From NCBI GenBank assembly GCA_963728205.1, contig CAVSIV010000002.1:288001-352000 (forward strand): a stretch of DNA of 64,000 bases, written 5' to 3'. Below are positions 31,824-46,851 of this stretch, piece after piece (positions within the stretch are counted from its first letter, which is position 1; every line of letters begins with the position of its first letter). A model generated the notes under the pieces. It was given only the letters and a program-made list of their open reading frames with translations, had not been told where the DNA came from and ran no database searches. Both the position numbers and the translations under genes were made by a program. The DNA comes from an uncultured Chloroflexia bacterium. GTDB taxonomy: Bacteria > Chloroflexota > Dehalococcoidia > UBA2979.

Positions 31824-31897
31824 GGGCCCGTAGCTCAGCGGCCTAGAGCAGTCGGCTCATAACCGATCGGTCCCAGGTTCGAATCCTGGCGGGCCCA
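31824..31897 (+). tRNA. tRNA with CAT anticodon, most likely tRNA-Ile2 (lysidine-modified)
   Basis: Acceptor GGGCCCG/CGGGCCC, D-arm TAGCTCAG..TAGAGC, anticodon loop CTCATAA, GGTTCGAATCC T-loop; paired first base pair so not the initiator; CCA not encoded. Confidence 0.93.
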
Positions 31898-33176: not shown

Positions 33177-34043
33177 CTACGTCAGCAGGTTGCGGCTTGC
33201 CACCGTGATCGACGCGGTGCGCGCGAAGTCGCGCGCCTCCTCCGCCTCCCGGATCAGCCCGTCGCCCGTGACCTCGTCCTCGGGGAACGACGCGATGCCG
33301 GCGCGCACTTCCACGTCGAGCACCTGCTGTCCCACCGCCGCGAGCTTCTCGGCGACCACCTGCGCGCCGTCCAGCCCCGTCTCCGGCAGCAGCGCCGTGA
33401 AGTCTGCGCCGCCCATGTGGATCAGCGTGTCGACCGTGCGGAGTGCCTCCAGGTACTCGGTGCTCGCGCGCTGCACGAGCTCCAGCGCCGCGTCGTGCCC
33501 GTGCTCCTCGACGATCTGGCGCCAGTCGTCGGGCCCCACCGCGACGAGCGAGAAGTTGTGCGAGTAGCGCCGCGCGCGGCTCACCTCCTGCGACAGCAGG
33601 CGGTCGGCGTGCGCGCGCTTCATCGCGCCGGTCTGCGAGTCGATGGCCTGGACCTCCTCGATGACGCGCTGTCGGGCGCCGAGCTCCTCGTCGTAGGCGA
33701 TGATCGCGCGCCGGATCTGGTCGCCGAGGATCGCGGTGATCGCGATCGCGGCGACGCCCACGACGGCAGCCTGGAGGTCGGTGGAGTTGGCCGGGACATC
33801 GGGCGACGAGGCGCGCACGCCGTGCAGGCCCGCGTAGCCGAGGGCGAACAGCGCGGCGAGCGCGAGGTGGCTGCCCGGGAACGGGCGCCACACGGCGAAG
33901 CCCGCCACGACCGCCACGGCGATCACGCCGAGCGCGGCGGAGTCCCGCGCGGGATCGACGATCCCGATCGCGCCGGCGGCCAGCGCCACCCAGATCGCGA
34001 GCATGAACATCCGCAGCCAGAGGTCGCGGCTGTATTCGCTCAC
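33177..34043 (-). CDS. membrane protein with degenerate GGDEF domain (PelD-like c-di-GMP receptor candidate)
   Basis: About 4 TM helices, DSQTG, RTVD-x5-GGADF (intact I-site, dead A-site); GGGAGG RBS before GTG 34043. Confidence 0.8.
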   Translation of the reverse strand: MSEYSRDLWLRMFMLAIWVALAAGAIGIVDPARDSAALGVIAVAVVAGFAVWRPFPGSHLALAALFALGYAGLHGVRASSPDVPANSTDLQAAVVGVAAIAITAILGDQIRRAIIAYDEELGARQRVIEEVQAIDSQTGAMKRAHADRLLSQEVSRARRYSHNFSLVAVGPDDWRQIVEEHGHDAALELVQRASTEYLEALRTVDTLIHMGGADFTALLPETGLDGAQVVAEKLAAVGQQVLDVEVRAGIASFPEDEVTGDGLIREAEEARDFARTASITVASRNLLT

Positions 34044-34062
34044 CCGGTCCTCCCTGCGGTCA

Positions 34063-35697
34063 TCATCGGACGGGCTCGTTCTCCACGCGATAGACGCGGT
34101 ATGCGCCCGATTCGAACGCCAGCGCGCCGAGGCCGGCGCCGTTGTCGTACAGCCCCGGGTGGGCCGCTTCAAGCGCGCTCCGCGCTGCGCCCGGCGTCGG
34201 CCGCCGCACGAGCACGTACCCCACGACGCCGAACGGGTTGTACACCGCGGCCTCGTTGCCCGTGTCGGCTGCGGTCCGGAAGCGGTCGTACTCGCCGCTC
34301 AGCACCATCACCGGTGCAGCGCGCTCGATGTCGGCCAGCAGCTGGCCGGGCGCCACGTTCGCGTCGACCCAGCGCGCGGTGGCGGCCGCGTCCGGGTCGG
34401 GCGGCACCGGCCGCTGGTGCACGAGAGCGCCGAGGAACGCCGGCGCGGGAGCGTCGGTGGCGGGCAGGCGCGGGAGCACCGCCAGCTGCACCAGCGCCGC
34501 GACGATGAGCGGCGCGACGAGCAGCAGCTGCTGGCGGCGGTGGCGCGACTCGATCCGGCTCGGCACGACGCCGCGCGTACGGCGGTGCTCGACGTACGCG
34601 ATGGCGACGAACAGCGGCACCACCGCGACGAACAGGTGCGTGACGCGCGGCTGCCCGTGCCCGCTGAGCAACCCCAGGACCGCCGGCGCGAGCGCGGACG
34701 CGAGCACGGCGGCCACCGCCGCCGGCGCGCGCTCACGCCGGTATGCGGCGAACGCGACCAGCGCCGCGACGGCCGCGAACGACAGCGGCGCCACCGCCAG
34801 CGACCAGCCGCCCACCCACGCGACGACGCCGGCCGGGTTCGCGTGCAGCGTTGCCATGCGGTGCGCGAGCACGACGCTGTCGCCGGCGAGGCCGCTTAGC
34901 GCCGACGCGCGCGCGAGGAACTCGTCCAGGTGCCCGAACGGGAACCACGCCACGAGCGTCCACAGCCCGACCGCGAACGCGACCGGCGTGAGGAACGCGA
35001 GGGTCGTCGCCTGCGCGGCGTCCTCGCGCGCGAGCGCCGGCCCGCGGTTGCGCGCGATCCACCAGAAGCCGGCGGCCATCGCGGCGTCCACCACGGCCGA
35101 GTCGTACCGCAGCAGGAACGCCGCGGCCATCGCCGCACCGGCGCCGATCACGGCGCCGACGGAGTCGTCGCGCAGCCACTGGATGAACTGACCGCACGCC
35201 GTGAGCAGCAGCGCGGCATAGAGCGCGTCGGGCAGGCCGGTCGCGGCGCTGAACAGCAGCACCGGCTGCAGCGAGAAGGCCGTCACGAAGACGACGCGCG
35301 CCGGGCGCGCCAGCCCGCTGCGCCGGGCGATGCCCGCCGCCGCGAGCACCGTCGCCCCGCCCGCGACCGCCGTCCCCAGCGCGCCGGCCAGCGCGTCCGC
35401 GCGCAGCGTGCGGAACGCCGCGAACGGCAGCGCGAGCAGCGTGAGCAGTGGCGGTCGCTCCAGCCCGAACGCCAGCGGCGACGTGTCGTAGCCGTTCCAC
35501 AGCGCGCCCAGGTGCGCGGTCCGCGCGACCGCCTCAGGCGACGCGAGCCCGAGCCCGCCGACGGCGCGCACGGCGAGCGCGACGCACAGCGCCGACACCG
35601 CGAGCGCGCCCGCTTCGGCCGTGCCGAACCGCACCCGCGTCAGCGCCTCGCGACGAGGCGCCTGGCGCCCGCCGGCGAGCGTGCCGATCCGGCTCAC
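34063..35697 (-). CDS. polytopic membrane protein, GT-C (ArnT/PMT-like) candidate
   Basis: About 11-12 hydrophobic segments, ERPPLLTLL loop, LLRYD, soluble C-terminal tail. Fold assignment is inferred. Confidence 0.6.
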   Translation of the reverse strand: MSRIGTLAGGRQAPRREALTRVRFGTAEAGALAVSALCVALAVRAVGGLGLASPEAVARTAHLGALWNGYDTSPLAFGLERPPLLTLLALPFAAFRTLRADALAGALGTAVAGGATVLAAAGIARRSGLARPARVVFVTAFSLQPVLLFSAATGLPDALYAALLLTACGQFIQWLRDDSVGAVIGAGAAMAAAFLLRYDSAVVDAAMAAGFWWIARNRGPALAREDAAQATTLAFLTPVAFAVGLWTLVAWFPFGHLDEFLARASALSGLAGDSVVLAHRMATLHANPAGVVAWVGGWSLAVAPLSFAAVAALVAFAAYRRERAPAAVAAVLASALAPAVLGLLSGHGQPRVTHLFVAVVPLFVAIAYVEHRRTRGVVPSRIESRHRRQQLLLVAPLIVAALVQLAVLPRLPATDAPAPAFLGALVHQRPVPPDPDAAATARWVDANVAPGQLLADIERAAPVMVLSGEYDRFRTAADTGNEAAVYNPFGVVGYVLVRRPTPGAARSALEAAHPGLYDNGAGLGALAFESGAYRVYRVENEPVR

Positions 35698-35703
35698 CGG
35701 GCG

Positions 35704-38700
35704 CTAGTCCCCGAGCCCCGCGGCCTCGATGCCGGACACGTTCGACAGGCCGTGAATCGTCTTCTCCCAGTAGAACGGCCGGTAGAAAAGCTGCAGGAAC
35801 CCCTTCCATGCGGCGATCGACATCAGCACCCAGTACACCGGCGACAGCAGCGCCCACTTCACGAGTGAGTAGTACCGCCGCCGCAGGCATCCCGCGACGT
35901 TCATGTACGCGAACGCGAAGTTCCCCGCGTACAGGGAGATCGCCCCCATGTAGAAGATCGGCGCGGGAAACAGCTGCTGGATCACTCCCCAGTGCGTGAG
36001 GAACCACACCCCCGTGAGCCCCCACAGCACCGGGTTGAGCAGGAACCCGAAGAACGTCCCGCCGATCACCAGCTGGAACGAGAGGAACCCGCTCGGCCCC
36101 AGCTGCTGCCACAGCAGCATCGGGTGCCGCATGTGCACCAGGTACGTCTGGATGTACCCCTTCACCCAGCGCGACCGCTGCCGGATCCAGTTGTCGAGGA
36201 CCGAGTTCGCCTCCTCGTAGGTCGTGGAGTCGACGACCGCGGTGGCGCCGCCCAGCTTGAAGATGCGCAGTCCGAGGTCGGCGTCCTCCGTGACGTTGAA
36301 CGGGTCCCAGCCCCCCACGGCGCGCAGCGCCTCGGTGCGGAAGTGGTTCGACGTGCCGCCCAGTGGGATCGGCGCCCCCGACGCGTCGAGGCCGGGCAGG
36401 AAGAGGTCGAACCACGTTGAGTACTCGGTGGTGAACCACTTCGTCAGGGCGTTCTGCGTGCGGTTGTAGTAGTTGAGCTTCCCCTGGATGCAGACGACGT
36501 TCTCAGCGGCGATCGAGAACGCGACGAGCACCTTCTTCAGCTGATCCGGCTCAGGGATGTCCTCGGCGTCGAAGATCACGACGTACTCGCCGCGCGCATG
36601 CAGCAGCCCGTAGTTGCAGGCCTTCGGCTTCCCCTTGGGCTGGCCGTCCGGAACGATCGTGATGTCGAAGGTCGACGGCAGATTCGAGTTGCGCGCGACC
36701 TGGATCGTCTCCGGGTCGTCCTCCTCCAGCAGCAGCTTCACGTCGAGCTTCTCAATCGGGTAGTCGAGCCGCGAGAGGCCCTTCACCAGCGCCGGCAGCA
36801 CCTCGGACTCGCGGTAGAGCGGCACGAGGATCGTGTAGACGGGCAGCGTGCGGTCGTCGAGCGCGTCGACCTGCTGGTCGGTCACCGGCACCTCGAGCGT
36901 GTGCGAGAGGGCGCGGTAGATCAGGTAGAACTTGTAGCTCGAGAATGTGAGGTAGAACCCCGTCGCGAGCGCCAGCAGCACGGTCAGCGTGACGATCGGG
37001 AAGAGGAGGAGCAGCGCGGCCAGCGCGGCGACGAGGCCGATCAGGAACACCTTCTGGCCGCGCGAGAGCACCTTGTACGCGGAATCCTCCGGCGCGCGAC
37101 GCATCAGGTCGCCGGCCGAGTGCTCGAGGTACTGCTCGTGGTACAGGCGCTCGAGCGCGTCGCGCACGTCGCTGCGCGTCGTCCCCACGATGTTCACGGG
37201 CCGGTCCAGCAGGGCGCGCGCCTCTTCGATGCCGCTCCGGTTGCCCGGGTCGGCGATCGCGAGCGTCACGATGCCGTCGTCGTCCACGCTCAGGGGCACG
37301 ATCTCCTGAGCGCGCACGAAATGCTCGGGCAGCAACTCCGCGATCTCGGGGTCGAGGTCCAGCCCGCGGATGGCGACGAAGGGCATGCCCTGCTGCGCCG
37401 CCAGCGCCTCGCCGAGCTGCTCCTCGGAGATGATGTCGAGCGAGAGCAGCGCCTCGCCGAGCCGCACGCCGGCGCGCTCCGAGAGCTCGAGCGCGCGGTC
37501 GAGGTCCGCGCGCGAGATTCGATCGGACTCGAGCAGCAGGTCGCCCACCACCTGGTAGCCGTGCGCGCGTTGAGCCGCCTCCACGATGTCGCTGCGCGTC
37601 GCCGGGCGCACCACGATCGGGACCCCGAGCAGCCGCCCCACCTCAGTGCGCGTGCGCTCGTCGAGCGGGTCGGCCATCGCGACGACGAGGTGCTCGCCCT
37701 CGTCGTGCACCGGCACGGCGCCGAGGCGGCGGGCGTCCGCGAGCTCGAGCCGCCGCGCCGCCGCGTGATCGACGGGATCGGCCAGCACGCGGCGCGTGAC
37801 GCTCACGCCGCCCTCCTCGGTCGTGTCGAGGCGGTCGCGCCGCGCCAGCTCCAGCGGGTCGACGTGCATGTACGCGCCCAGCGCGTCGCGCAGCTCGGTG
37901 CCGGAGAGCAGCTCGATCTGCCGCGCCGCGACGTCAACGGGCTCGGCCGTCTCCTGCATGCGCCGGATCAGCCCGAGCACGCGCACGCGCGGGATGTCGA
38001 GGCGCTGCTCGAGCACGCGCGCGAGCCCCTCGTAGGCGGCGGGGACGGCGGCGAAGTCGAGCGTCGCGAGGTCGATGCGCGCGGCATCGATGTCGTCCTC
38101 GCGCGCGACGACGAGCCGCACCACGCACTGGTGCGCGCCGGCCAGCTGCCGCGCGGCTTCCACGCGATCGGGCGAGGCGAACGCGACGGTCAGTACGTCG
38201 TCCTCGCACAGCAGCGGCAGCAGCGGAGGCGCGTCGGGGCCGACGGGCCGCATGCGCGCGGCGACCGGCTCCGGGCGCAGCAGCAGCTGGTGCACGCGCG
38301 GCAGCGCCGCCTCCAGCGCCACGGCCTCCGAGCGGCTGCCGTTCTCGACCAGCTCCCAGATCCGCGGCAGGTCCGCGGTGTCCAGGCGCGAGAGATCGAC
38401 GTCGACCGCGGCGGCGCCGGCTTCGTCGACGAAGCCGGCCTCGGCGAGCAGCGCGACGAGTCGCTCCGGGTCCCCGACGGCGAGCACGTCGCGCGCGTCG
38501 GACTCGGGCGCGAGCTCGAGGATCTCCTCGAGGTCGCGCTGCGTGACGGCGATCGGGCGGATGCGGCGGCGCAGGAACGCGGCGAGCCCGCGCCGCGCCC
38601 GCTGGTCCCACGGGTCGACCATCGCCACGCGCGCGTCGTCGTCGTCCATCTCGATCACCGCGCAGCGCAGCCGCCGCGCGAGCGCGCGCGGCAGGCGCCC

Positions 38701-39660
38701 GGCGACGCCACGGTCGACCTCCGCGAGTCCGGCGTACGCCTCGGCGCCGGCGCCGCCGAATCGCGCGGTCGCCTGGCGGATCTGCTCGTCGGTGATCCCC
38801 GCGAGCCGCTGGATCACGCGTTCGAACGGCTCGCGGGTGGCGCGCGCGATGTCACCGGCGGCCTGCATCTGCGCGGGCGTCGCGAGCCGGTAGTAGCGCA
38901 GCGCGCCGCGCAGGTCGACCGCGGCGCCCGCGTCGTCGGCGGGCAGCCCGCCGAGCCGGCGTGTCAACTCCTCGTGGCTCACGAGCAGCGGCCGCAGCGG
39001 CAGACCGAGCAGGAAACGCAGGCGCTCCATCACCTCGACCGACGGCGGCCGATTGATTGCGAAGAAGAGCTCGTCGCGCACGGTCCAGACGGGCAGCACG
39101 CGGAGCTCGGCGATGACGTCCGCCGGCAGCAGCGCCTCGAGACCCGCACGCACCGGGTGGTGACGCAGGTCGAGACTGGGGAGGTGGAATGCGAGACCGA
39201 CCGCTTCGAGTCGCTCCTCCTCGGTGAGGACGCGCGCGTCGACGAGCGCGGCGCCGAGGTACGGCTCCTCCTCCCCGCCGAGCACGTACATGTCGACCTG
39301 CTCCGGCGGGAGCACGCGCATCGCCTGCAGCACGACGGCCAGCGCGCGACGCCAGTCCTGCGCGGTGACGGTGCCGGTCGACGCGGCGAGCGCCAGGGCG
39401 ATCTCCGCGCGGCCGGCGGCGCGCACGCTGATCGGGCGCCCCAGCCGGCGGCGGAGTTCCTGCATCAGCTCCTGGTCGCGGGGTCGCGTGGTCGCGCAGA
39501 CCACGCCGTCGCGCTCCACCGAGAGCGGGATGACGTCGTGCTCGCGACAGAAGCCGATGCCGAGCTGCTGCACGAGCTCGGGTCGCGCGCGGAGCCGGCT
39601 GACGGGCACGTACAGCTCGGCCGTGCGGGCGGCATTCGATTCGAGGATTGAGACGGCCAC
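35704..39660 (-). CDS. processive GT2 (cellulose-synthase-like) glycosyltransferase with six N-terminal MshEN/T2SSE_N repeats
   Basis: C-terminus: YTILVPLYRE, GKPKACN, FDAED, TEDADLG, QRSRW plus TM helices. N-terminus: repeated VAMADP-type units and RLGEALLSLDIISEEQLGEALAAQ. Confidence 0.88.
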   Translation of the reverse strand: MAVSILESNAARTAELYVPVSRLRARPELVQQLGIGFCREHDVIPLSVERDGVVCATTRPRDQELMQELRRRLGRPISVRAAGRAEIALALAASTGTVTAQDWRRALAVVLQAMRVLPPEQVDMYVLGGEEEPYLGAALVDARVLTEEERLEAVGLAFHLPSLDLRHHPVRAGLEALLPADVIAELRVLPVWTVRDELFFAINRPPSVEVMERLRFLLGLPLRPLLVSHEELTRRLGGLPADDAGAAVDLRGALRYYRLATPAQMQAAGDIARATREPFERVIQRLAGITDEQIRQATARFGGAGAEAYAGLAEVDRGVAGRLPRALARRLRCAVIEMDDDDARVAMVDPWDQRARRGLAAFLRRRIRPIAVTQRDLEEILELAPESDARDVLAVGDPERLVALLAEAGFVDEAGAAAVDVDLSRLDTADLPRIWELVENGSRSEAVALEAALPRVHQLLLRPEPVAARMRPVGPDAPPLLPLLCEDDVLTVAFASPDRVEAARQLAGAHQCVVRLVVAREDDIDAARIDLATLDFAAVPAAYEGLARVLEQRLDIPRVRVLGLIRRMQETAEPVDVAARQIELLSGTELRDALGAYMHVDPLELARRDRLDTTEEGGVSVTRRVLADPVDHAAARRLELADARRLGAVPVHDEGEHLVVAMADPLDERTRTEVGRLLGVPIVVRPATRSDIVEAAQRAHGYQVVGDLLLESDRISRADLDRALELSERAGVRLGEALLSLDIISEEQLGEALAAQQGMPFVAIRGLDLDPEIAELLPEHFVRAQEIVPLSVDDDGIVTLAIADPGNRSGIEEARALLDRPVNIVGTTRSDVRDALERLYHEQYLEHSAGDLMRRAPEDSAYKVLSRGQKVFLIGLVAALAALLLLFPIVTLTVLLALATGFYLTFSSYKFYLIYRALSHTLEVPVTDQQVDALDDRTLPVYTILVPLYRESEVLPALVKGLSRLDYPIEKLDVKLLLEEDDPETIQVARNSNLPSTFDITIVPDGQPKGKPKACNYGLLHARGEYVVIFDAEDIPEPDQLKKVLVAFSIAAENVVCIQGKLNYYNRTQNALTKWFTTEYSTWFDLFLPGLDASGAPIPLGGTSNHFRTEALRAVGGWDPFNVTEDADLGLRIFKLGGATAVVDSTTYEEANSVLDNWIRQRSRWVKGYIQTYLVHMRHPMLLWQQLGPSGFLSFQLVIGGTFFGFLLNPVLWGLTGVWFLTHWGVIQQLFPAPIFYMGAISLYAGNFAFAYMNVAGCLRRRYYSLVKWALLSPVYWVLMSIAAWKGFLQLFYRPFYWEKTIHGLSNVSGIEAAGLGD

Positions 39661-39672
39661 GCGACCGGCGCC

Positions 39673-39912
39673 CTACCGCCCGAACCGGGTGCGCAGCCGG
39701 GCGCGCACCCGCGCGAACTGGCGGATGCCGCCGCTCATGCCGAGCAGCGCGAGCGCGACCACGATGAAGATGAAGGGGAGTGTGAAGTAGCCGAGGAACG
39801 CGATCAGGAAGATCGCGAGGCCGGCGCCGATGAAGAAGCCGACACGGAGCAGCACCCAGCCCGCGGTGAGCACGTCGAAGACAAACCCGGCGAGGCCACG
39901 GCGCTGGGCCAT
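39673..39912 (-). CDS. small membrane protein (79 aa)
   Basis: Two to three hydrophobic stretches and a basic tail; tightly packed in the operon; AAGGTG RBS. Confidence 0.7.
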   Translation of the reverse strand: MAQRRGLAGFVFDVLTAGWVLLRVGFFIGAGLAIFLIAFLGYFTLPFIFIVVALALLGMSGGIRQFARVRARLRTRFGR

Positions 39913-39921
39913 GCGGTCACC

Positions 39922-41456
39922 TTACCTGTCGCCCTCGCCCGCGGCGAATGCGCGCCCGGTGTCGAGGCGAAGCTCGAGCTCGGAGCGCGACTCCGACACC
40001 AGGCTCCACGGGAAGGCGGTCAGGTCGTGCAGCCGCTGGACGAGGGGGATGACGTCCTCGTACTCGACGGCGAGGTGGAGCGTGCCCTTGTAGAAGCGCC
40101 GGACCCGCACGCTCTTCACGCCGCGCAGGGCGCGGGCGGCGGACTGGAACTCGTTGAGGGCGCCGAAGGATCGGAACGGGTAGACGACGAGCGTGACGTG
40201 CTCGGTGAGAGCGACGGCGCCGCCGGGGCGCTCGTCTACGCCGACCATGCGACCGTCGTCATCGGGGCGATCGTCCGCCGGCGCGGGCGCCGGTGTCGCC
40301 GGCTCGCGCAGCGGCGCGAGTTCGGGCGCGATGGGGGTGGGGGTTCCGGCCGCGTAGGCGAACGGCTCGTCGGCGGGTCGGCCGCGTCGGCGGCGTCGGC
40401 GGCGTAGGCCGCGTCCGCGGTGGGTTCCGCGTGCGGCCACGGCGCGGCGTACTCGGTGGCGGCGTCCTCGGTCGGCCACGCGTCGGTCCCCCGCTCGGCG
40501 GGCGCGAGGTTCTCGGCGTCCGGCGACTGCCATGCGCGCTGCTCGGGCTGCCCGCTCGGCTGGGGCGCCGGCTCGGCGGGCGCGACGGGCGGCGTCCACG
40601 TGACGGCGGCCGGGGCGATCGGCTCGCGCGGAGCGACGGGTGGACGCGGCGCCGCGCGCTCGGAGCGCGTGTCGGCGGCGGGCGCCGCGACGACGTGTGC
40701 AGGCTCGACGGGCGGCGCGGGCGCCCGTCGCGGTTCGCTCGCCGCGGGAACGAACGTCGACGGTGTGGCCGCCGCGGCACGAGGCTCGTCGGTCCAGGCG
40801 ATGCGCGGGCGCTGGCGCGGCGGCAGCACTTCGGCGATCGGTTCCTCCTCCACGGCGACGATCGCGCGGACGCGCGCCTCCATGCCGCCGGGAAGGGTCG
40901 TGCAGCTCAGGAGCTCAAATGCGTCGAGCGCGTAGAGCGCGCGCGAGAGGCATTGCACGCCGGGGGTGTGCACCGCGAGCCAGGCGTCGGCCAGGTCGCC
41001 GCCGCGGATCAGCGAGACCTCGGTGATCTCCGCGCCCTGCTCGAGGTCGCGCGCGAACCGCAGCAGCTCCAGCTGGTCCGCGAAGCTTCCGACGCGCAAC
41101 ACGACCGTCGGCGGCGCCGTCGGCTCCGCGGGCGCGTCCGGCGCCGGCGGCGCGGCAGGCGCGTCGAACCGTGCGACCGCCGCAATGGCGCGCGCGGTAT
41201 CCGCCGACGTCGCCGGCCCCGTCCACGCGTCGGCCTCCGCGAGCGGCGGCGTGTAGTCGCGCGTCGTGTACGTGCAGATGCACGGGCCGCCGTTCACGCA
41301 CCCCGTGCAGCAGAACGCCTCGCCGTCGAAGTAGACGGGCTCGCCCGCGAGCGGCTCCTCGCAGTTCGCGCAGAGCTCGGCTCCCACGGCGCCGTATGCG
41401 ATGGCGCCCGCGCGGTAGCGCTCTGCCTGAACGGCCCCGGGTGTGTTGTCGTCCAC
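39922..41456 (-). CDS. hypothetical protein: Cys-rich N-terminus, two small alpha/beta domains, Pro/Ala linker (frameshift near 40375)
   Basis: CANC-x15-CCTGC-x5-CIC; VVLRVGSFAD... and VTLVVYPFRSF...VRRFYKGTLHLAVEY domains lie in two overlapping frames joined near 40375. Confidence 0.65.
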
Positions 41457-41624: not shown

Positions 41625-44053
41625 TCAGCGCACGCTCGCGAGGTAGGCGACGGTCACGCCCTCGCCGCCCTCGGAGCGCTGACCGCTCTCGAACGACGTG
41701 ACGAGCGGGTGGCGCTCGAGGAGCTCGCGGACGGCGCGCCGCAGCGTGCCGGTGCCCTTGCCGTGGATCAGGCGGACCCGCGCGCGCCCCGAGCGCGCCG
41801 CCTGGTCGAGGAACGCCTCAATCTTGGGCATCGCCTCGTCCAGCCGCTGGCCCCGCACCTCGATCTCTTCGGGCACGCTGACCGTGAGCTCGGGGATCGC
41901 GGTACCGGAGCGCGCGCGCGGGAGCTCCTCCGGCGCGCCGGTGCGCTCGACCTGCTCGGTGCGCACGCGCGTGCGCAGCGCCCCGAGCTGCACGTCGAAC
42001 TCGCCGCGATCGTCGGGCTCCGCCAGCGCCTCGCCCGGCAGCGAGATCCCGCGCAGCCACACGACCACGCCCGGCGCGACCGGCACCTGCGGCGCCTCGC
42101 GGCCGCGCGCGCGACGGCGCCGCGCGAGCGCGACCTCGTCGCCGTCCTCCGCGGGCGCCTCCGGCGGCGACGCCGGCTCGAGCGCGCGCACCGCCTCGCG
42201 CGCCCGCTCGAGGTCCGACCGCGCCTGCGACAGCCGCGCCGCCTCCACCTCGCGCCGCGTGCGCTCGACCAGCCGCTCCGCTTCGCGCAGCTCGCGGCGG
42301 ATGCGCGACTGCGCCTCCTCGCGCATGCGCGCGGTGTCCCCCGCCAGCACCTCGAGCCGCCGCTCGAGCTCCTCGCGCAGCTGCTCGGCCTCCGCCGCAG
42401 CGGTGCCGGCGCGCTCGGCGCGCTGCTCGGCGGCCGTGAGCTGCGCGCGCAGGTCGCCGAGCAGCGATTCGAGGTCGCGCTGCTCCTCGGTCAGCCCGCG
42501 CCGCGCGCTCTCGATCACGTCGGCCGGCATGCCGAGGTTCGACGCGATCGCCAGCGCGTTCGACTGGCCGGGCAGGCCCATCGTCAGGCGGTACGTCGGC
42601 GACAGGCTCGCGACGTCGAACTCCACCGAGGCATTCTGCACGCCCGGCGTGCGGTGCGCGTACAGCTTCAGCTCGCTGTGGTGAGTCGTCGCGATCAGCG
42701 TCGCGCCGTCGGCAAGCAAGCGGTCGACGATCGCGATCGCGAGCGCGGCGCCCTCGGTGGGGTCGGTGCCGGCGCCGATCTCGTCGAGCAGCACGAGCGA
42801 GCGCGCGTCGGCGCGCTCGATGATGTCGATGATCGCGGTGATGTGGCCGGAGAACGTCGAGAGGCGACTGCTCGATCGACTGCTCGTCGCCGATGTCGGC
42901 GAAGACGGCGTCGTAGACCGGCACCTGCGTGCCGACCTCCGCGGGTACCGGCAGGCCGGCGAGCGCCATCAGGCAGAGCAGCCCCGCCGTCTTCAGCGCG
43001 ACGGTCTTGCCGCCGGTGTTCGGCCCGGTGATCGAGCAGCGCGTGCGTCTCGCCGCCGACCGACAGCGTCGTCGGCACGACATGGCCCTCGAGCAGCGGG
43101 TGCCGCGCGCGCTCCAGCCGCAGCTCGGCCGGCGCCTCGACGATCCAGCGCGCGGCCGCGCCGGCCGCCGCCAGCTCGGTGGCGTCGAGCTGCTCCGCCA
43201 GCCGCGCCTTCGCCAGCGCGACGTCGACGTGCGCCAGCCGCTGTACGGCGTCCACGACGTCGGTCGACGCCTGGCCGACGGCGTCGGAGAGGTCGCGGAG
43301 GATGCGATCGACCTCGTGCCGCTCCTGGATCTGCAGCTCGCGCCAGCGGTTGCCGAGCTCGACGACCTCCATCGGCTCGACGTAGAGCGTCGCGCCGGAC
43401 GCGGAGGTGTCGTGGACGACGCCGCGCACCGCGCCACGGAAGTCCGCGCGCACGGGCAGCACGTAGCGGCCGTTGCGCATCGTCACGATGGGGTCCTGCA
43501 GCGCCTCGCGCAGCGAGGACGCGTTGACGAGCGACTGCATGCGCTGCTGCAGCCGCTCGTGCGCGGTCACGAGCTCGCGGCGAATCGCGCGCAGCTCGGG
43601 GCTCGCGTCGTCGACGACCTCGCCGCGGTCGTCGATGGCGCCCTCGATCAGCTGCCGCAGCGGCCCGAGGTCCGCGATCCCTGCGCCGACCACGGCGAGC
43701 AGGGGCGCGTCTTCGGCGGCGCGGCCCAGCGCGCGCGCGACGCGTGCGGCGGCGCCGGCCGTCGCGGCGACGTTCAGGAGCTCTTCGGGGGCGAGCACGT
43801 GGCCGCGCGCAGCGCCGGCCGCGTGCTCGCGCACGTCGTGTGCGCCGGCGAGCGGTACGGTGACGCCGAGCGCCGCGAGACGCACGGCCTCGGCCGTCTC
43901 GCGCTGCCGGCGCACCACCGTGTCGCGGTCGGCGACGGGACGCACGGCGAGCGCCGACTCCCGGCCGGCGGAGAACGCGGTGTGCCGCGCCAGCCGCTCG
44001 ACGACCCGCGGGTACTCGAGGACGGCGAGCGCTCTATCGTCCGTCGCCGTCAC
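41625..44053 (-). CDS. mutS2: MutS2 endonuclease / ribosome collision factor (frameshifts near 43033 and 42863)
   Basis: [59 protein letters not shown], Smr domain IHGKGTG. Confidence 0.9.
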
Positions 44054-45436
44054 CGTTTCGCAGATCGACCTGAGCCGGCGGCAGGCCGAGGCAGTCGCGC
44101 AGCACCTGCTCGATGTGGAAGTCCTCGCGCGGGTCGACCGTGCGCGGGTCGAGCAGCACGCGGCCCTCGTGGATGCGCGCGACAATCGGCGGATCCGCAC
44201 GACGCAGCGCGGCGGCGAACGCGGTGGCATCGCCATCCGGCGGGTCGACGGCGCAGACGATGGTCGGCAGGTCCTCGCCCGGCAGCGAGCCGCCGCCGAC
44301 GGTCGAGCGCGACTCGATGGTGATGCCCTGCGGGCCGCAGGCGCGCGACCAGCGGCGCGCGCGCCGGCCGAGCGCGTCGGCGGGCTCGGCGATCATGCGC
44401 CACACCGGCACCTCGGCCTCCGCCTCGCCGCGCGCGTAGTGCTGCAGCGTCGCCGCCAGGCCGGCGATCGCCGACTTGTCGAGCCGCACCGCGCGCGCCA
44501 GCGGGTGGCGGCGCATCGTCGCGATCGGCTCGGCGCGTCCCACCGCGATCCCGGCCTGCGGCCCGCCGAGCAGCTTGTCGCCGGAGAACAGCACGACGTC
44601 GGCGCCGGCCTCCACTGCCTCCTGCACCATCGGCTCGGGCGCCAGCCCGTAGCGGCGCGTGTCGAGCAGCGCGCCGGAGCCGAGATCGTCGAGCATCAGC
44701 AGCCCGCGCTCGCGCGCCAGCTGCACCAGCTCCGCAGCGCCCGGTGACGCCGTGAAGCCGACCACGCGGAAGTTCGACGCGTGCACGCGCAGGATCGCCG
44801 CCGTGCGCTCGGTGATCGCCGCGGCGTAGTCGCGGACGTACGTGCGGTTCGTCGTGCCGACCTCGACGAGCTCGGCGCCGGACTGGCGCAGGACGTCCGG
44901 GATGCGGAAGCCGCCGCCGATCTCGACGAGCTGGCCGCGCGAGATGATCACCTCGCGGCCGGCGCACAGCGCGCCCAGCGCGAGCAGCAGGGCGGCGGCG
45001 TTGTTGTTCACCGCCAGCCCGGCGTCGGCGCCGGATACGCGACATGAGAGAGCTCGAGGTGCGCGTAGCGCGACCCGCGCTCGCCGGCGGCGACGTCGAA
45101 CTCCAGGTTCGAGTAGCCGGCTCCGACGCGCTCCATCGCCGCCAGCGTCTCGCGCGAGAGCGGGGCGCGACCCAGGTTCGTGTGGATGATCACGCCGGTC
45201 GCGTTGACGACGCGTCGCAGCGACGGCCGCAGCTCGTCGGCGCGCGACAGCAGCACCTCCACCGCCGCGGCCTCGGGCAGGGCTCCGGCGCGCTCGATGT
45301 GCTCGCGATAGCCGTCGAGCACCGCGCGGGCGAGCGCCACGACGGGGTCGCGGCCGTGCTGCGCCGCCAGCGCGCCGACGCGCGGATCGGCCAGCAGGCG
45401 ATCGACCGAGGGCAGGCGGCGGTAGAGGTCGTTCAT
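44034..45436 (-). CDS. selA: L-seryl-tRNA(Sec) selenium transferase (indels near 45030-45050)
   Basis: LPSVD, VNATGVIIHTNLGRAPL, YSNLEFD, VNNNAAA, SRGQLVEIGGGFRIP, EVGTTN, FSGDKLLGGPQAG. Confidence 0.92.
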
Positions 45437-45563
45437 GGTGGCTCCGACGGGCTGCGCGCTCCCGATTGTAAGGTGCCGTTCCGGGTTCGCGCGGGGTACG
45501 GGACCGGTCGCGGGCGCCCGATAGTTACCCAGAGAACGAGTGCGCCCCCGGAGAGGCATCGAG

Positions 45564-46851
45564 ATGTTGGCCGCAGGCCGCCGCACTGCGAAGAATGCCG
45601 AGCCCCGGCAGACGTCCAACCTGCTTGTCGCGCGCCAGCCCATCTACAACGCCCGCCTCGAGGTCACGGCGTACGAGCTCCTGTTCCGCTCGCTCCCCAG
45701 CGCGCAGCTCAGCGGCGCCGCCGGCACGCAGGCGACGGCGCGCCTGATCCTCGACAGCGTGCTCGAGCAGAGCACCCAGACGCTCACCGAGGGCCACCCG
45801 GCGCACATCAACTTCACGCGCGATCTCATCGTGGGCGGCTACGGCAGCATCGTGCCGGCCGAGTCCGTCGTCATCGAGGTCCTCGAGGACGTGCCGCACG
45901 ACGAGGAGGTGCTGACGCAGCTCCGCGCGCTCCGCGCCGGCACGTACCAGATCGCGCTCGACGACATCGTCGACATCCCGCGCGTCGAAGGCTTCAAGGA
46001 CGTCGCGTCGATCGTGAAGGTCGACCTGCCGTACGTGGAGCCGCGCGAGCTGGTCACGATGGTGCGCGATCTGCGCCGGCTGCTGCCGCGGGCGAAGCTC
46101 GTGGCCGAGAAGGTCGAGACCTGGGAGGTCTTCCAGTTCGTGCAGCGGCTCGGCTTCGACGGGTTCCAGGGCTACTTCCTGAGCAAGCCGATTGTCGTCG
46201 AGCACCGCAGCGTGCCCGTGTTCAAGGCGCACTACCTGCAGCTGCTGAACGCGACCAGCAAGCCCGAGGTCGACTTCGACGAGGTGGAGCGCATCGTGCG
46301 TGCGGAATCTCGCGCTCACGAGCAAGCTGCTGCGGCACGCGAACTCCGCGTCGTCGATGCAGACGCGCGCGATCGGCTCGATCCGCGACGCGCTCGTGCT
46401 GCTCGGCGCGGAGGGCGTGCGCCGCACCGCGGCGCTCGCCGCGCTCGCCGGCCTCGGCAACGACCGTCCGCTGCAGCTCGCGATCGACTCGGTCGTGCGC
46501 GCGCGCTTCTGCGAGTCGCTGGCGACGCTCGGCGACCTCGGCGTGCCGCGGTTCGACCTCTTCCTGCTCGGCATGTTCTCCACGGTCGACGCGATCCTCA
46601 GCATGCCGATGGATCGCGCGGTCGCGGACCTCCCGATCTCCACCGACGTGCGTGAGGCGCTGCTGCACGGAGAGGGCCGGCTGGGGGCAGTGCTCCGGCT
46701 GCTCCAGTTGCAGGAGCGTGCGCAGTGGGACGAGTTCCAGGGCGTCGCCGGCGCGCTCGGCCTCGACGTCGCCGCGATCCCGCCGCTGTACGTGGCTGCC
46801 GTCGAGTGGGCGAACGCCGCCTTCGCCGAGGACAAGGCCGCCGCGGCATAG
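45564..46851 (+). CDS. EAL-HDOD c-di-GMP phosphodiesterase (PdeH/YuxH-like; frameshift near 46306)
   Basis: [40 protein letters not shown]; HDOD LLRHANS...LLG...FLLGMFS. Confidence 0.88.

Follow-up and report, generated by a model that had tools for sequence, protein, structure and literature searches.

A Chloroflexota five-gene operon as a probable variant of the xag/sfz surface-polysaccharide system, with a GT-C partner and a degenerate-GGDEF receptor candidate

We analyzed a five-gene operon in a 64,000-nucleotide stretch of DNA from an uncultured Chloroflexia bacterium (the window; G000:C2:288001-352000, where G000 is the window's genome and other G and L numbers label the other genomes and loci compared). 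The G000 assembly spans 4.1 Mb at 72% GC and is 89% complete. The genes, g1 to g5, occupy 33177-41456 on the minus strand with intergenic gaps of 9, 12, 6 and 19 nucleotides, confirming the tight, co-oriented arrangement noted in a first-pass annotation of this DNA, which had proposed a new surface-glycan synthesis system doubly gated by cyclic di-GMP (c-di-GMP). A c-di-GMP-linked surface-glycan machine is still the best reading. Specifically, the operon is probably a Chloroflexota variant of the xag/sfz synthase-dependent surface-polysaccharide system, in which c-di-GMP control would be led by g5 and the polymer would be decorated by g4. The claim of a new system did not hold: the core is the cassette already named xagBC or sfz2-3, each regulatory part has a precedent, and the receptor layouts, as described, are foreshadowed by Listeria pss (PMC4125290) and Bacillus subtilis yda (PMC7064775). 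What may be new here is the GT-C fold of the partner in the XagC/Sfz3 position, and a possible shift of control to a separate membrane receptor.

The relationship is carried by the synthase g3 and the membrane protein g4. g3 aligns to a 684-residue Mariprofundus micogutta protein (P0135, taken as Sfz2 by organism, length and annotation) with 43% identity over 605 residues (E 3e-157), and to P0059, named XagB by JGI, with 44% identity over 607 residues. It also agrees by eye, motif by motif, with the PV-1 Sfz2 sequence given in a published supplement (PMC8250860). The g4 family matches eight proteobacterial proteins in the Sfz3 position with an hhalign probability of 99.9 (E 1.8e-34, 486 columns; published Sfz3 compared by eye only). 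The proteobacterial loci repeat the sfz order, BcsB-GT2-X-GH113 and/or CotH, where X is the g4-family match. Because g3 aligns to the Sfz2-like and XagB-named proteins and X matches the g4 family, the g3-g4 core is, on sequence comparison, XagB/Sfz2 plus XagC/Sfz3.

In the sfz cluster as described, Sfz1/CDS9 is BcsB-like, Sfz2 combines T2SSE_N with GT2, Sfz3 is a protein of about 500 residues without a function, Sfz4 is a glycoside hydrolase (GH) and Sfz6 has SH3 and CotH domains, with a phosphomannose isomerase gene adjoining the cluster (PMC8250860). The bcsB-xagBCD or sfz1-6 (sfb1-4) cassette of stalk-forming Fe(II) oxidizers has been equated with Xanthomonas xagBCD (PMC4643136), and the surplus biofilm formed by an rpfG mutant of Xanthomonas is reported to disappear when xagA/xagB are deleted (PMC3609779). 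According to a review, the nature of the xag polymer is still to be established, and the mannanase ManA disperses Xanthomonas biofilm (PMC8042644). The match to a characterized locus that the first-pass annotation had guarded against is therefore half there: the cassette is named and genetically tied to biofilm, but it is not biochemically characterized.

The operon shares with xag/sfz a synthase with an N-terminal T2SSE_N/MshEN region followed by GT2, a TED-to-QxxRW spacing of 37 and a following membrane family of about 500 residues, as well as a link to c-di-GMP, neighboring genes of the mannose pathway and, for most long-form relatives, a BcsB-like partner. It differs in that g3 has six MshEN repeats instead of one or two and falls in a separate subclade in both trees; the window adds g1, g2 and a transmembrane (TM) GGDEF receptor, but has no BcsB-like, GH (Sfz4/XagD) or Sfz5/6 gene in the operon; and g4 keeps acidic motifs that the proteobacterial copies have lost. 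Because the gene content lacks BcsB and GH, the operon is, judged from its genes, xag/sfz-type rather than the canonical cassette. Missing outer-membrane export genes had been taken to fit a monoderm, an argument we reject because the sfz1-6 set of diderm Zetaproteobacteria, as described, includes no BcsC-type pore either.

Pfam recognizes six MshEN stretches and one GT2 domain in g3, bearing out the description of an MshEN-array GT2. The catalytic part has DAED at residue 1031, TEDAD at 1124 and QRSRW at 1161, the QxxRW/TED motifs of processive synthases being invariant, and the membrane region has about 4-5 hydrophobic helices. The MshEN_C-type subdomains lie at residues 27-92, 175-234, 315-382, 481-527, 630-700 and 770-840, but only one recognizable c-di-GMP motif accompanies the array: a 53-residue stretch (704-756) that matches 17 of 22 key positions, against 10 for the next best site in g3 and 8-13 for shuffled sequences, and that scores 52.6 bits against NF053729 (cut-off 38). 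It keeps G11, L25, L29, R38, L39, G40, L54, L58 and Q61, has V at L10, and has no equivalents of MshE R9, G18, Q32 and G47. The ligand motif is absent from the remaining five repeats, and six c-di-GMP sites on g3 are thus rejected. The best PDB sequence match of the proximal repeat is the Thermus PilF GSPII tandem. Cellulose synthase BcsA was also discarded (no PilZ; 64 bits to CelA versus a cut-off of 699), as was NfrB (78 bits versus a cut-off of 1170, from the MshEN part only, with reversed domain order).

Synthase trees were built with FastTree and, for 48 of 120 rows, with IQ-TREE under LG+G4. The synthases of the window, G022, L064, L151 and L065 form one clade with a support of 100 in both, and the window's GT2 branch is short (0.06). 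The surrounding subclade, which FastTree supports at 99 and IQ-TREE at 86 or less, unites long-form Chloroflexota with Thermoleophilia and Nocardioides. The closest named relative among the matches listed is L064, from a Dehalococcoidia metagenome-assembled genome (84% identity). The L065 synthase, 82% identical to the window's, sits in this Dehalococcoidia-like clade, and the Thermoflexus label or binning of its record may be off.

The fold of g4 is clearly GT-C according to its predicted structure (predicted local distance difference test, pLDDT, 90.3), which is polytopic with a C-terminal extracytoplasmic domain, in agreement with the first-pass description. Pfam gives only a sub-threshold match to PMT_2 (E 5.7e-4). 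Foldseek gives 20 matches at E<=0.001, every one of them a GT-C enzyme, with AglB/STT3/DPY19 and ArnT at the top, and a VIA fold search places ArnT (Z 18.6, root-mean-square deviation 5.8, 400 aligned) and Pmt (Z 18.4) above AglB. Given this fold and the homology of g4 to proteins in the Sfz3/XagC position, the XagC/Sfz3 partner, hitherto without a function, probably has a GT-C fold as well. In the open literature we found neither a description of XagC/Sfz3 as GT-C nor one of the Chloroflexota variant; supplements or subscription papers could already cover both.

g4 keeps E55, D157 and R197-Y-D199; judged by position, E55 and D157 may be equivalent to the catalytic residues of ArnT/PglB. Among 87 synthase-adjacent partners, an acidic residue stands at position 55 in 74, at 157 in 56 and at 199 in 51. 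A catalytically competent decorating enzyme is plausible. Alternatively, g4 could be a non-catalytic GT-C-fold partner, a scaffold or an escort for lipid or polymer, as may hold for proteobacterial XagC/Sfz3: copies in nine proteobacterial loci (L063, L100, L103, L111, L116, L119, L132, L136 and L137) have lost the G-x-S-E and R-Y-E motifs, and no donor-synthesis gene lies in the operon. Retention of the acidic residues and R197 in the window's copy, and a Dpm1-like GT2 elsewhere in G000 (C6:1215699-1216445), make this quite unlikely.

The family is widespread, with at least 549 relatives among 597 candidate GTDB stretches, and is tied to Xanthomonas biofilm and iron-oxidizer stalks. Of 401 Chloroflexota genomes sampled, 59 carry the synthase (E<=1e-90) and 49 contain a match to the g4 profile (E<=1e-8). 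Among the best 80 GTDB loci, which span many phyla, often end at contig edges and include kin that are not independent, MshEN is found on the GT2 in 63, and GT-C lies within 8 kb in 66 and is adjacent in 53. A BcsB-like gene occurs in 24 (by a profile built from these loci, with Pfam BcsB confirming 3 of 3 tested), g2 in 18, the g1 domain in 12 and a g5-type receptor in 3, all of them Chloroflexota. Other neighbors are GH5 (12), ManC-like (10), GH113 (5), Dpm1-GtrA-like (5) and exosortase genes (2), and a Geobacillus plasmid (CP128455) carries nucleotidyltransferase-BcsB-GT2-GT39. These neighborhoods point to a mannose-containing polymer for the family rather than for G000 itself. The mannanase ManA is reported to cleave the xag polymer itself. 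Together with the GT-C partner and its fusion to the synthase, the GDP-mannose, Dpm1-like and mannanase-family neighbors turn the polymer question into specific assays.

The same evidence bears on whether the product is a free polymer. In a glycoconjugate pathway, g3 would assemble a short, lipid-carried glycan, which g4, acting in the manner of an oligosaccharyltransferase or ligase, would transfer en bloc to surface proteins, lipids or the wall, with no free exopolysaccharide. The AglB/STT3/DPY19 and ArnT matches of g4, the few helices of g3, the missing BcsB in this clade's operon, exosortase genes adjoining seven family loci and the existence of GT2-GT-C fusions (single chains of 1130-1147 residues without MshEN in L241 and L244 of family f55, with similar open frames in other f55 genomes) are all compatible with such a pathway. 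We nevertheless consider it unlikely: the processive-synthase motifs are invariant, BcsB-like subunits and GH113/GH5 hydrolases accompany the family, operons have up to four GT-C paralogs, and VIA ranks ArnT and Pmt above AglB. Separate Dpm1-GtrA genes beside many loci would supply a monosaccharide-lipid donor, which fits decoration.

In g5, Pfam finds GGDEF only, with RTVD followed five residues on by GGADF. The RxxD is exact in 13 of 14 operon copies (L052 has RxxxD), its arginine is invariant, and GG[DE]EF occurs in 0 of 14. Alignment of these copies supports a catalytically dead GGDEF domain with a conserved I-site, and an active cyclase was rejected since GG[DE]EF is absent; eight other GGDEF domains are present in G000, six with intact GG[DE]EF. 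The annotation of g5 as a membrane GGDEF protein with RxxD and a dead active site thus stands, while its likeness to PelD does not: the Pfam scan found no GAF domain in the 288 residues, which include a short linker, and because of this g5 resembles a YdaK/PssE-like candidate c-di-GMP receptor more than PelD (a likening by published description). A metagenome scan with g5 returned mostly ordinary GGDEF proteins; the operon appeared in 2 of 80 loci, one of which (L150) is an apparent duplicate of L006 and was left uncounted.

YdaK is described as a receptor with four TM helices and I-site R202 in a putative exopolysaccharide operon of B. subtilis (PMC7064775), to be set beside 3-4 TM helices and Arg202 in g5. 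Listeria PssE binds with a dissociation constant of 0.79 uM and is encoded alongside the GT2 PssC and the BcsB-like PssD (PMC4125290). In both YdaJKLMN and PssA-E, as described, putative exopolysaccharide synthase genes accompany a membrane degenerate-GGDEF receptor with a required I-site. Their GT2 is expected to belong to a different subfamily, and the descriptions mention neither MshEN nor GT-C. The Yda/Pss operons carry deacetylase or hydrolase genes, and the window's operon does not. Pseudomonas PelD, like g5, has N-terminal TM helices and a degenerate GGDEF with RxxD; it differs in a GAF domain, as described (PMC8461298), that g5 lacks. The Pel system was rejected in view of the lack of GAF in g5 and of any PelA/E/F/G-like gene in the operon. 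The Pel synthase is a GT4.

The double gating of the first-pass annotation met with more difficulty, since only one eroded MshEN site is left on g3. Synthase-proximal motifs were grouped by hand (one low-scoring row was dropped from the short-form and one from the other-phyla group). Among operons with the receptor, Q32 survives in 1 of 14, and among clade members in which no receptor was seen, in 1 of 5, versus 13 of 14 short-form Chloroflexota and 31 of 31 synthases from other phyla; for R or K at position 9 the corresponding counts are 1/14, 0/5, 10/14 and 15/31. All members of the four groups retain G11. This loss, seen in aligned motifs, hints at a hand-over of receptor function from g3 to g5; it only hints, because it is clade-wide and may be one event. 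For PilF GSPII-A, the changes reported to abolish binding include a His in place of the Gln and the loss of one Arg, and how well the motif is conserved does not by itself predict binding (PMC12002112).

Several observations weigh against a g5-led xag/sfz variant. The MshEN motif of receptor-bearing operons retains G11 (14/14), G40 (12/14) and its leucine triads, so it may still bind, and Q32 is also lost in L231 and L232, where no g5-type receptor lies nearby. A search of three genomes from the same genus and 21 others from the same family found the operon in one only, a member of the second set. Of the 14 operons with the receptor, 10 come with BcsB, yet no BcsB-like gene was found in G000 (89% complete) by Pfam PF03170 or by our own six-frame profiles; as the BcsB-like gene of G022 is present but unlinked to the operon, the window's clade either recruits BcsB from elsewhere or does without. 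Family-type ManC was likewise not found in G000, Pfam finds no GH among the five operon genes, and GH113, GH5 and GH26 queries gave no G000 match at E 1e-10. Mannose is therefore unsupported for the window's copy, given the missing ManC and the lack of an operon GH.

In a true double gate, an AND-type or two-threshold switch, synthesis would depend on c-di-GMP occupying the g5 I-site together with the proximal MshEN site of g3. The g3 motif exceeds the NCBIfam cut-off, R38, Q61 and the hydrophobic triads are kept with G11 and G40 in most receptor-bearing operons, and a second good MshEN motif survives in a few orthologs (L047, L230). In MshE, single R9 or Q32 changes are reported to cost at most five-fold, Gly and Leu changes mattering more (PMC5013675), and Escherichia coli offers a described two-receptor precedent in BcsE, a degenerate GGDEF protein beside PilZ-gated BcsA (PMC8461298). 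Set against this are the loss of both R9 and Q32, on the same half-site, in the receptor-bearing operons and the comparable PilF GSPII-A losses that, as reported, help abolish binding (PMC12002112). A strict double gate, with both sites obligatory, is possible but doubtful. Compared more loosely, hand-over of control and double gating are about as likely, and the chance that the g3 site binds c-di-GMP physiologically is about even.

Under the favored reading of a g5-led xag/sfz variant, g3, whose motifs are observed, would polymerize a nucleotide sugar in the cytoplasm and pass the chain through the membrane, by analogy with the BcsA/PgaC class. g2 may complete or stabilize its few-helix channel. 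On the outer face, the predicted GT-C enzyme g4 would decorate the chain as it emerges, taking sugar side groups from a polyprenyl-phosphate donor, or would cap or anchor it. As in YdaK/PssE, c-di-GMP would exert its control chiefly at the g5 I-site; the one eroded MshEN site would be at most a weaker second input, the other five repeats would form a putative non-binding scaffold, and g1 might position or organize the complex. A fuller proposal is a Chloroflexota hand-over machine in which MshEN was multiplied into a six-repeat scaffold arm that lost key polar contacts, a YdaK-like membrane receptor assumed control, a DivIVA-associated protein positions the complex, a two-helix protein removes the need for BcsB, and an active GT-C yields a decorated, probably mannose-containing polymer. 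That all of these hold jointly is rather doubtful; if so, this would be a five-protein minimal machine that identifies XagC/Sfz3 as GT-C and gives a handle on the Xanthomonas xag and iron-oxidizer stalk polymers. The window's copy is a good test case for synthase-plus-GT-C coupling and for the synthase's change of c-di-GMP receptor, because it is small (five genes, with neither BcsB nor an outer-membrane step) and g3 is the only MshEN-bearing protein found in G000. A complex prediction of g3 (697-1318) with g2 and g5, scored on g5, gave 0.00 and weighs neither way.

Two other systems share the MshEN theme. E. coli NfrB-NfrA-YbcH (NGR glycan) also has a GT2 with an MshEN c-di-GMP module and few TM helices, but the GT2 comes first, a single fully conserved MshEN is C-terminal, the donor is UDP-ManNAc and an outer-membrane pore is used (PMC8669469). 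In Thermus PilF, GSPII-A/B/C are tandem MshEN-type domains, only some of which are described as binding c-di-GMP (PMC12002112); PilF is a pilus ATPase rather than a glycosyltransferase.

Conservation of the genes as a unit, on which the first-pass annotation made its proposal depend, is found in relatives outside the genus. Four of 40 relatives have a g3 match at E<=1e-20; none of the three from the same genus does, and of the 21 others from the same family, one does. G022 has all five genes at the equivalent site, flanked by mutS2 and a histidine-phosphatase gene. The BcsB-less order g1-g2-g3-g4-g5 is seen in the window and in three other Chloroflexota loci (G022, L064 and L151; L065 is cut by a contig end), and ten further loci have a BcsB-like gene in addition, with between one and four GT-C genes (G027, G226, G116, G108, G099, G305, G288, G090 on two contigs, L066 and L067). 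Near the long synthases of G166 and G139, no g5-type gene was seen.

Decay of the locus in G000 was also considered, as g1 is broken, no BcsB match was found in the genome, and congeners have no operon, the site holding other genes in G002 and being empty in G005, where mutS2 abuts the phosphatase gene. g2-g5 are intact across about 6.7 kb, the housekeeping mutS2 is frameshifted in this assembly too, the BcsB-less five-gene form recurs in G022, L064 and L151 (g1 being uninterrupted in the first two), and the window's GT2 branch is short. Decay is very improbable on this evidence.

The Cys-rich and Pro-rich composition reported for g1 holds, although it is not a single intact open reading frame (ORF): an intact 432-residue G022 ortholog matches frames -3 and -2, with a switch near 40,375. 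This is likely an assembly indel, since the nearby mutS2 (41625-44236) has two frameshifts and a cytochrome P450 gene (26686-27933) has one; a selA-like gene (44034-45643) also appears divided between frames, and the assembly seems rich in indel errors. The N-terminal Cys pattern of g1 is CxxC-x12-FCCxGC-x3-GPCxC, followed by a Pro/Ala-rich linker. Its C-terminal domain of about 85 residues (22 aligned copies, nearly all upstream of a synthase) has a predicted ferredoxin/HMA-like fold (AF2, pLDDT 91), with a non-specific best VIA Z of 6.8 and no Foldseek match at E<=0.001. It has 1873 representatives at E<=0.001; Atlas matches are hypothetical proteins, with one cluster 10% DivIVA. When nine operon g1 proteins were compared with Pfam DivIVA, one exceeded the cut-off and three matched more weakly, their coils being DivIVA-like. 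Because its relatives carry such coils, g1 might be a scaffold or placement subunit. In the window's clade a Cys-rich N-terminus replaces the coil, as it does in 20 of 103 longer representatives. Homologs of g2 lie upstream of the synthase in 27 loci, and 21 of these show no BcsB-like gene within the stretch covered; by analogy, g2 may be a synthase partner with a PgaD/IcaD- or BcsF-like role.

Table 1. Coordinates in the window of the operon genes and their features
Feature	Coordinates	Strand	Description
g1	39922..41456	-	Cys-rich N-terminus, Pro/Ala-rich linker, C-terminal ferredoxin-like domain; candidate localization/scaffold subunit
g1 C-terminal domain	39925..40197	-	Found upstream of synthase in Chloroflexota and Thermoleophilia loci
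g2	39673..39912	-	79 aa, two-helix membrane protein with basic tail; candidate synthase partner/adaptor
g3	35704..39660	-	1318 aa, XagB/Sfz2-family processive-type GT2 with six N-terminal MshEN/GSPII repeats
g3 sole recognizable MshEN c-di-GMP motif	37393..37551	-	Residues 704-756, NF053729 match
g3 GT2 catalytic and membrane region	35704..37080	-	DAED, TEDAD, QRSRW, WEKTxHG
g4	34063..35697	-	544 aa, predicted GT-C-fold membrane glycosyltransferase; homolog of XagC/Sfz3-position proteins
g5	33177..34043	-	288 aa, 3-4 TM helices, coiled linker, degenerate GGDEF; YdaK/PssE-type receptor candidate
g5 RxxD I-site	33429..33440	-	R202-T-V-D205
g5 dead active-site motif GGADF	33399..33413	-	GG[DE]EF in 0/14 operon copies

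Within the window, Rfam at gathering thresholds gave no c-di-GMP riboswitch, its sole match being a tRNA gene (31824-31897, plus strand) 1.3 kb downstream of the operon. Promoter and terminator scans returned 0 and 0, which is uninformative at 74% GC. Two overlapping ORFs at 45540-46851 (plus strand), 4 kb upstream of the operon, resemble one EAL-like plus HDOD protein, presumably similar to B. subtilis PdeH/YuxH; the pair could be a local c-di-GMP phosphodiesterase, and none was seen at the corresponding G022 site.

Elsewhere in G000, two stand-alone g4 paralogs lie at C2:395119-397488 (minus strand), with an N-terminal extension that is GtrA-like by eye, and at C1:986277-987839 (minus strand); no g4 relative was found in viral contigs. 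A coiled-coil, Pro-rich protein at C6:703280-704713 (minus strand) has a second g1-type C-terminal domain (E 4.9e-7) and looks DivIVA-like. An exosortase-like membrane protein at C4:181324-183273, unlinked to the operon, matches the profile of exosortases adjoining short-form synthases (E 5e-54) and is preceded by a gene for a secreted 83-residue peptide with a C-terminal hydrophobic helix and basic tail.

In other genomes, an exosortase gene adjoins a short-form synthase and GT-C in L048, L050, L051, L056, L057, L092 and L098, which hints at a link to sorted surface proteins. Nineteen Nocardioides/Thermoleophilia loci (for instance L084:13966-15420, L083:5987-7036 and L125:16638-17531) carry, next to the operon, conserved extra genes for a PBP_like_2 protein and two families without a Pfam match, and several Thermoleophilia encode the first MshEN_C repeat in a gene of its own (about 100 residues). 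This GT2 also occurs without MshEN in fusions of 1185-1621 residues (L117, L135, L139, L126 and L133), mostly in or near Patescibacteria. In L008 (G025:C13:17000-35000), a more distant MshEN-GT2 has a g1-type domain before it, while three GH26 genes and another large GT2 come after it.

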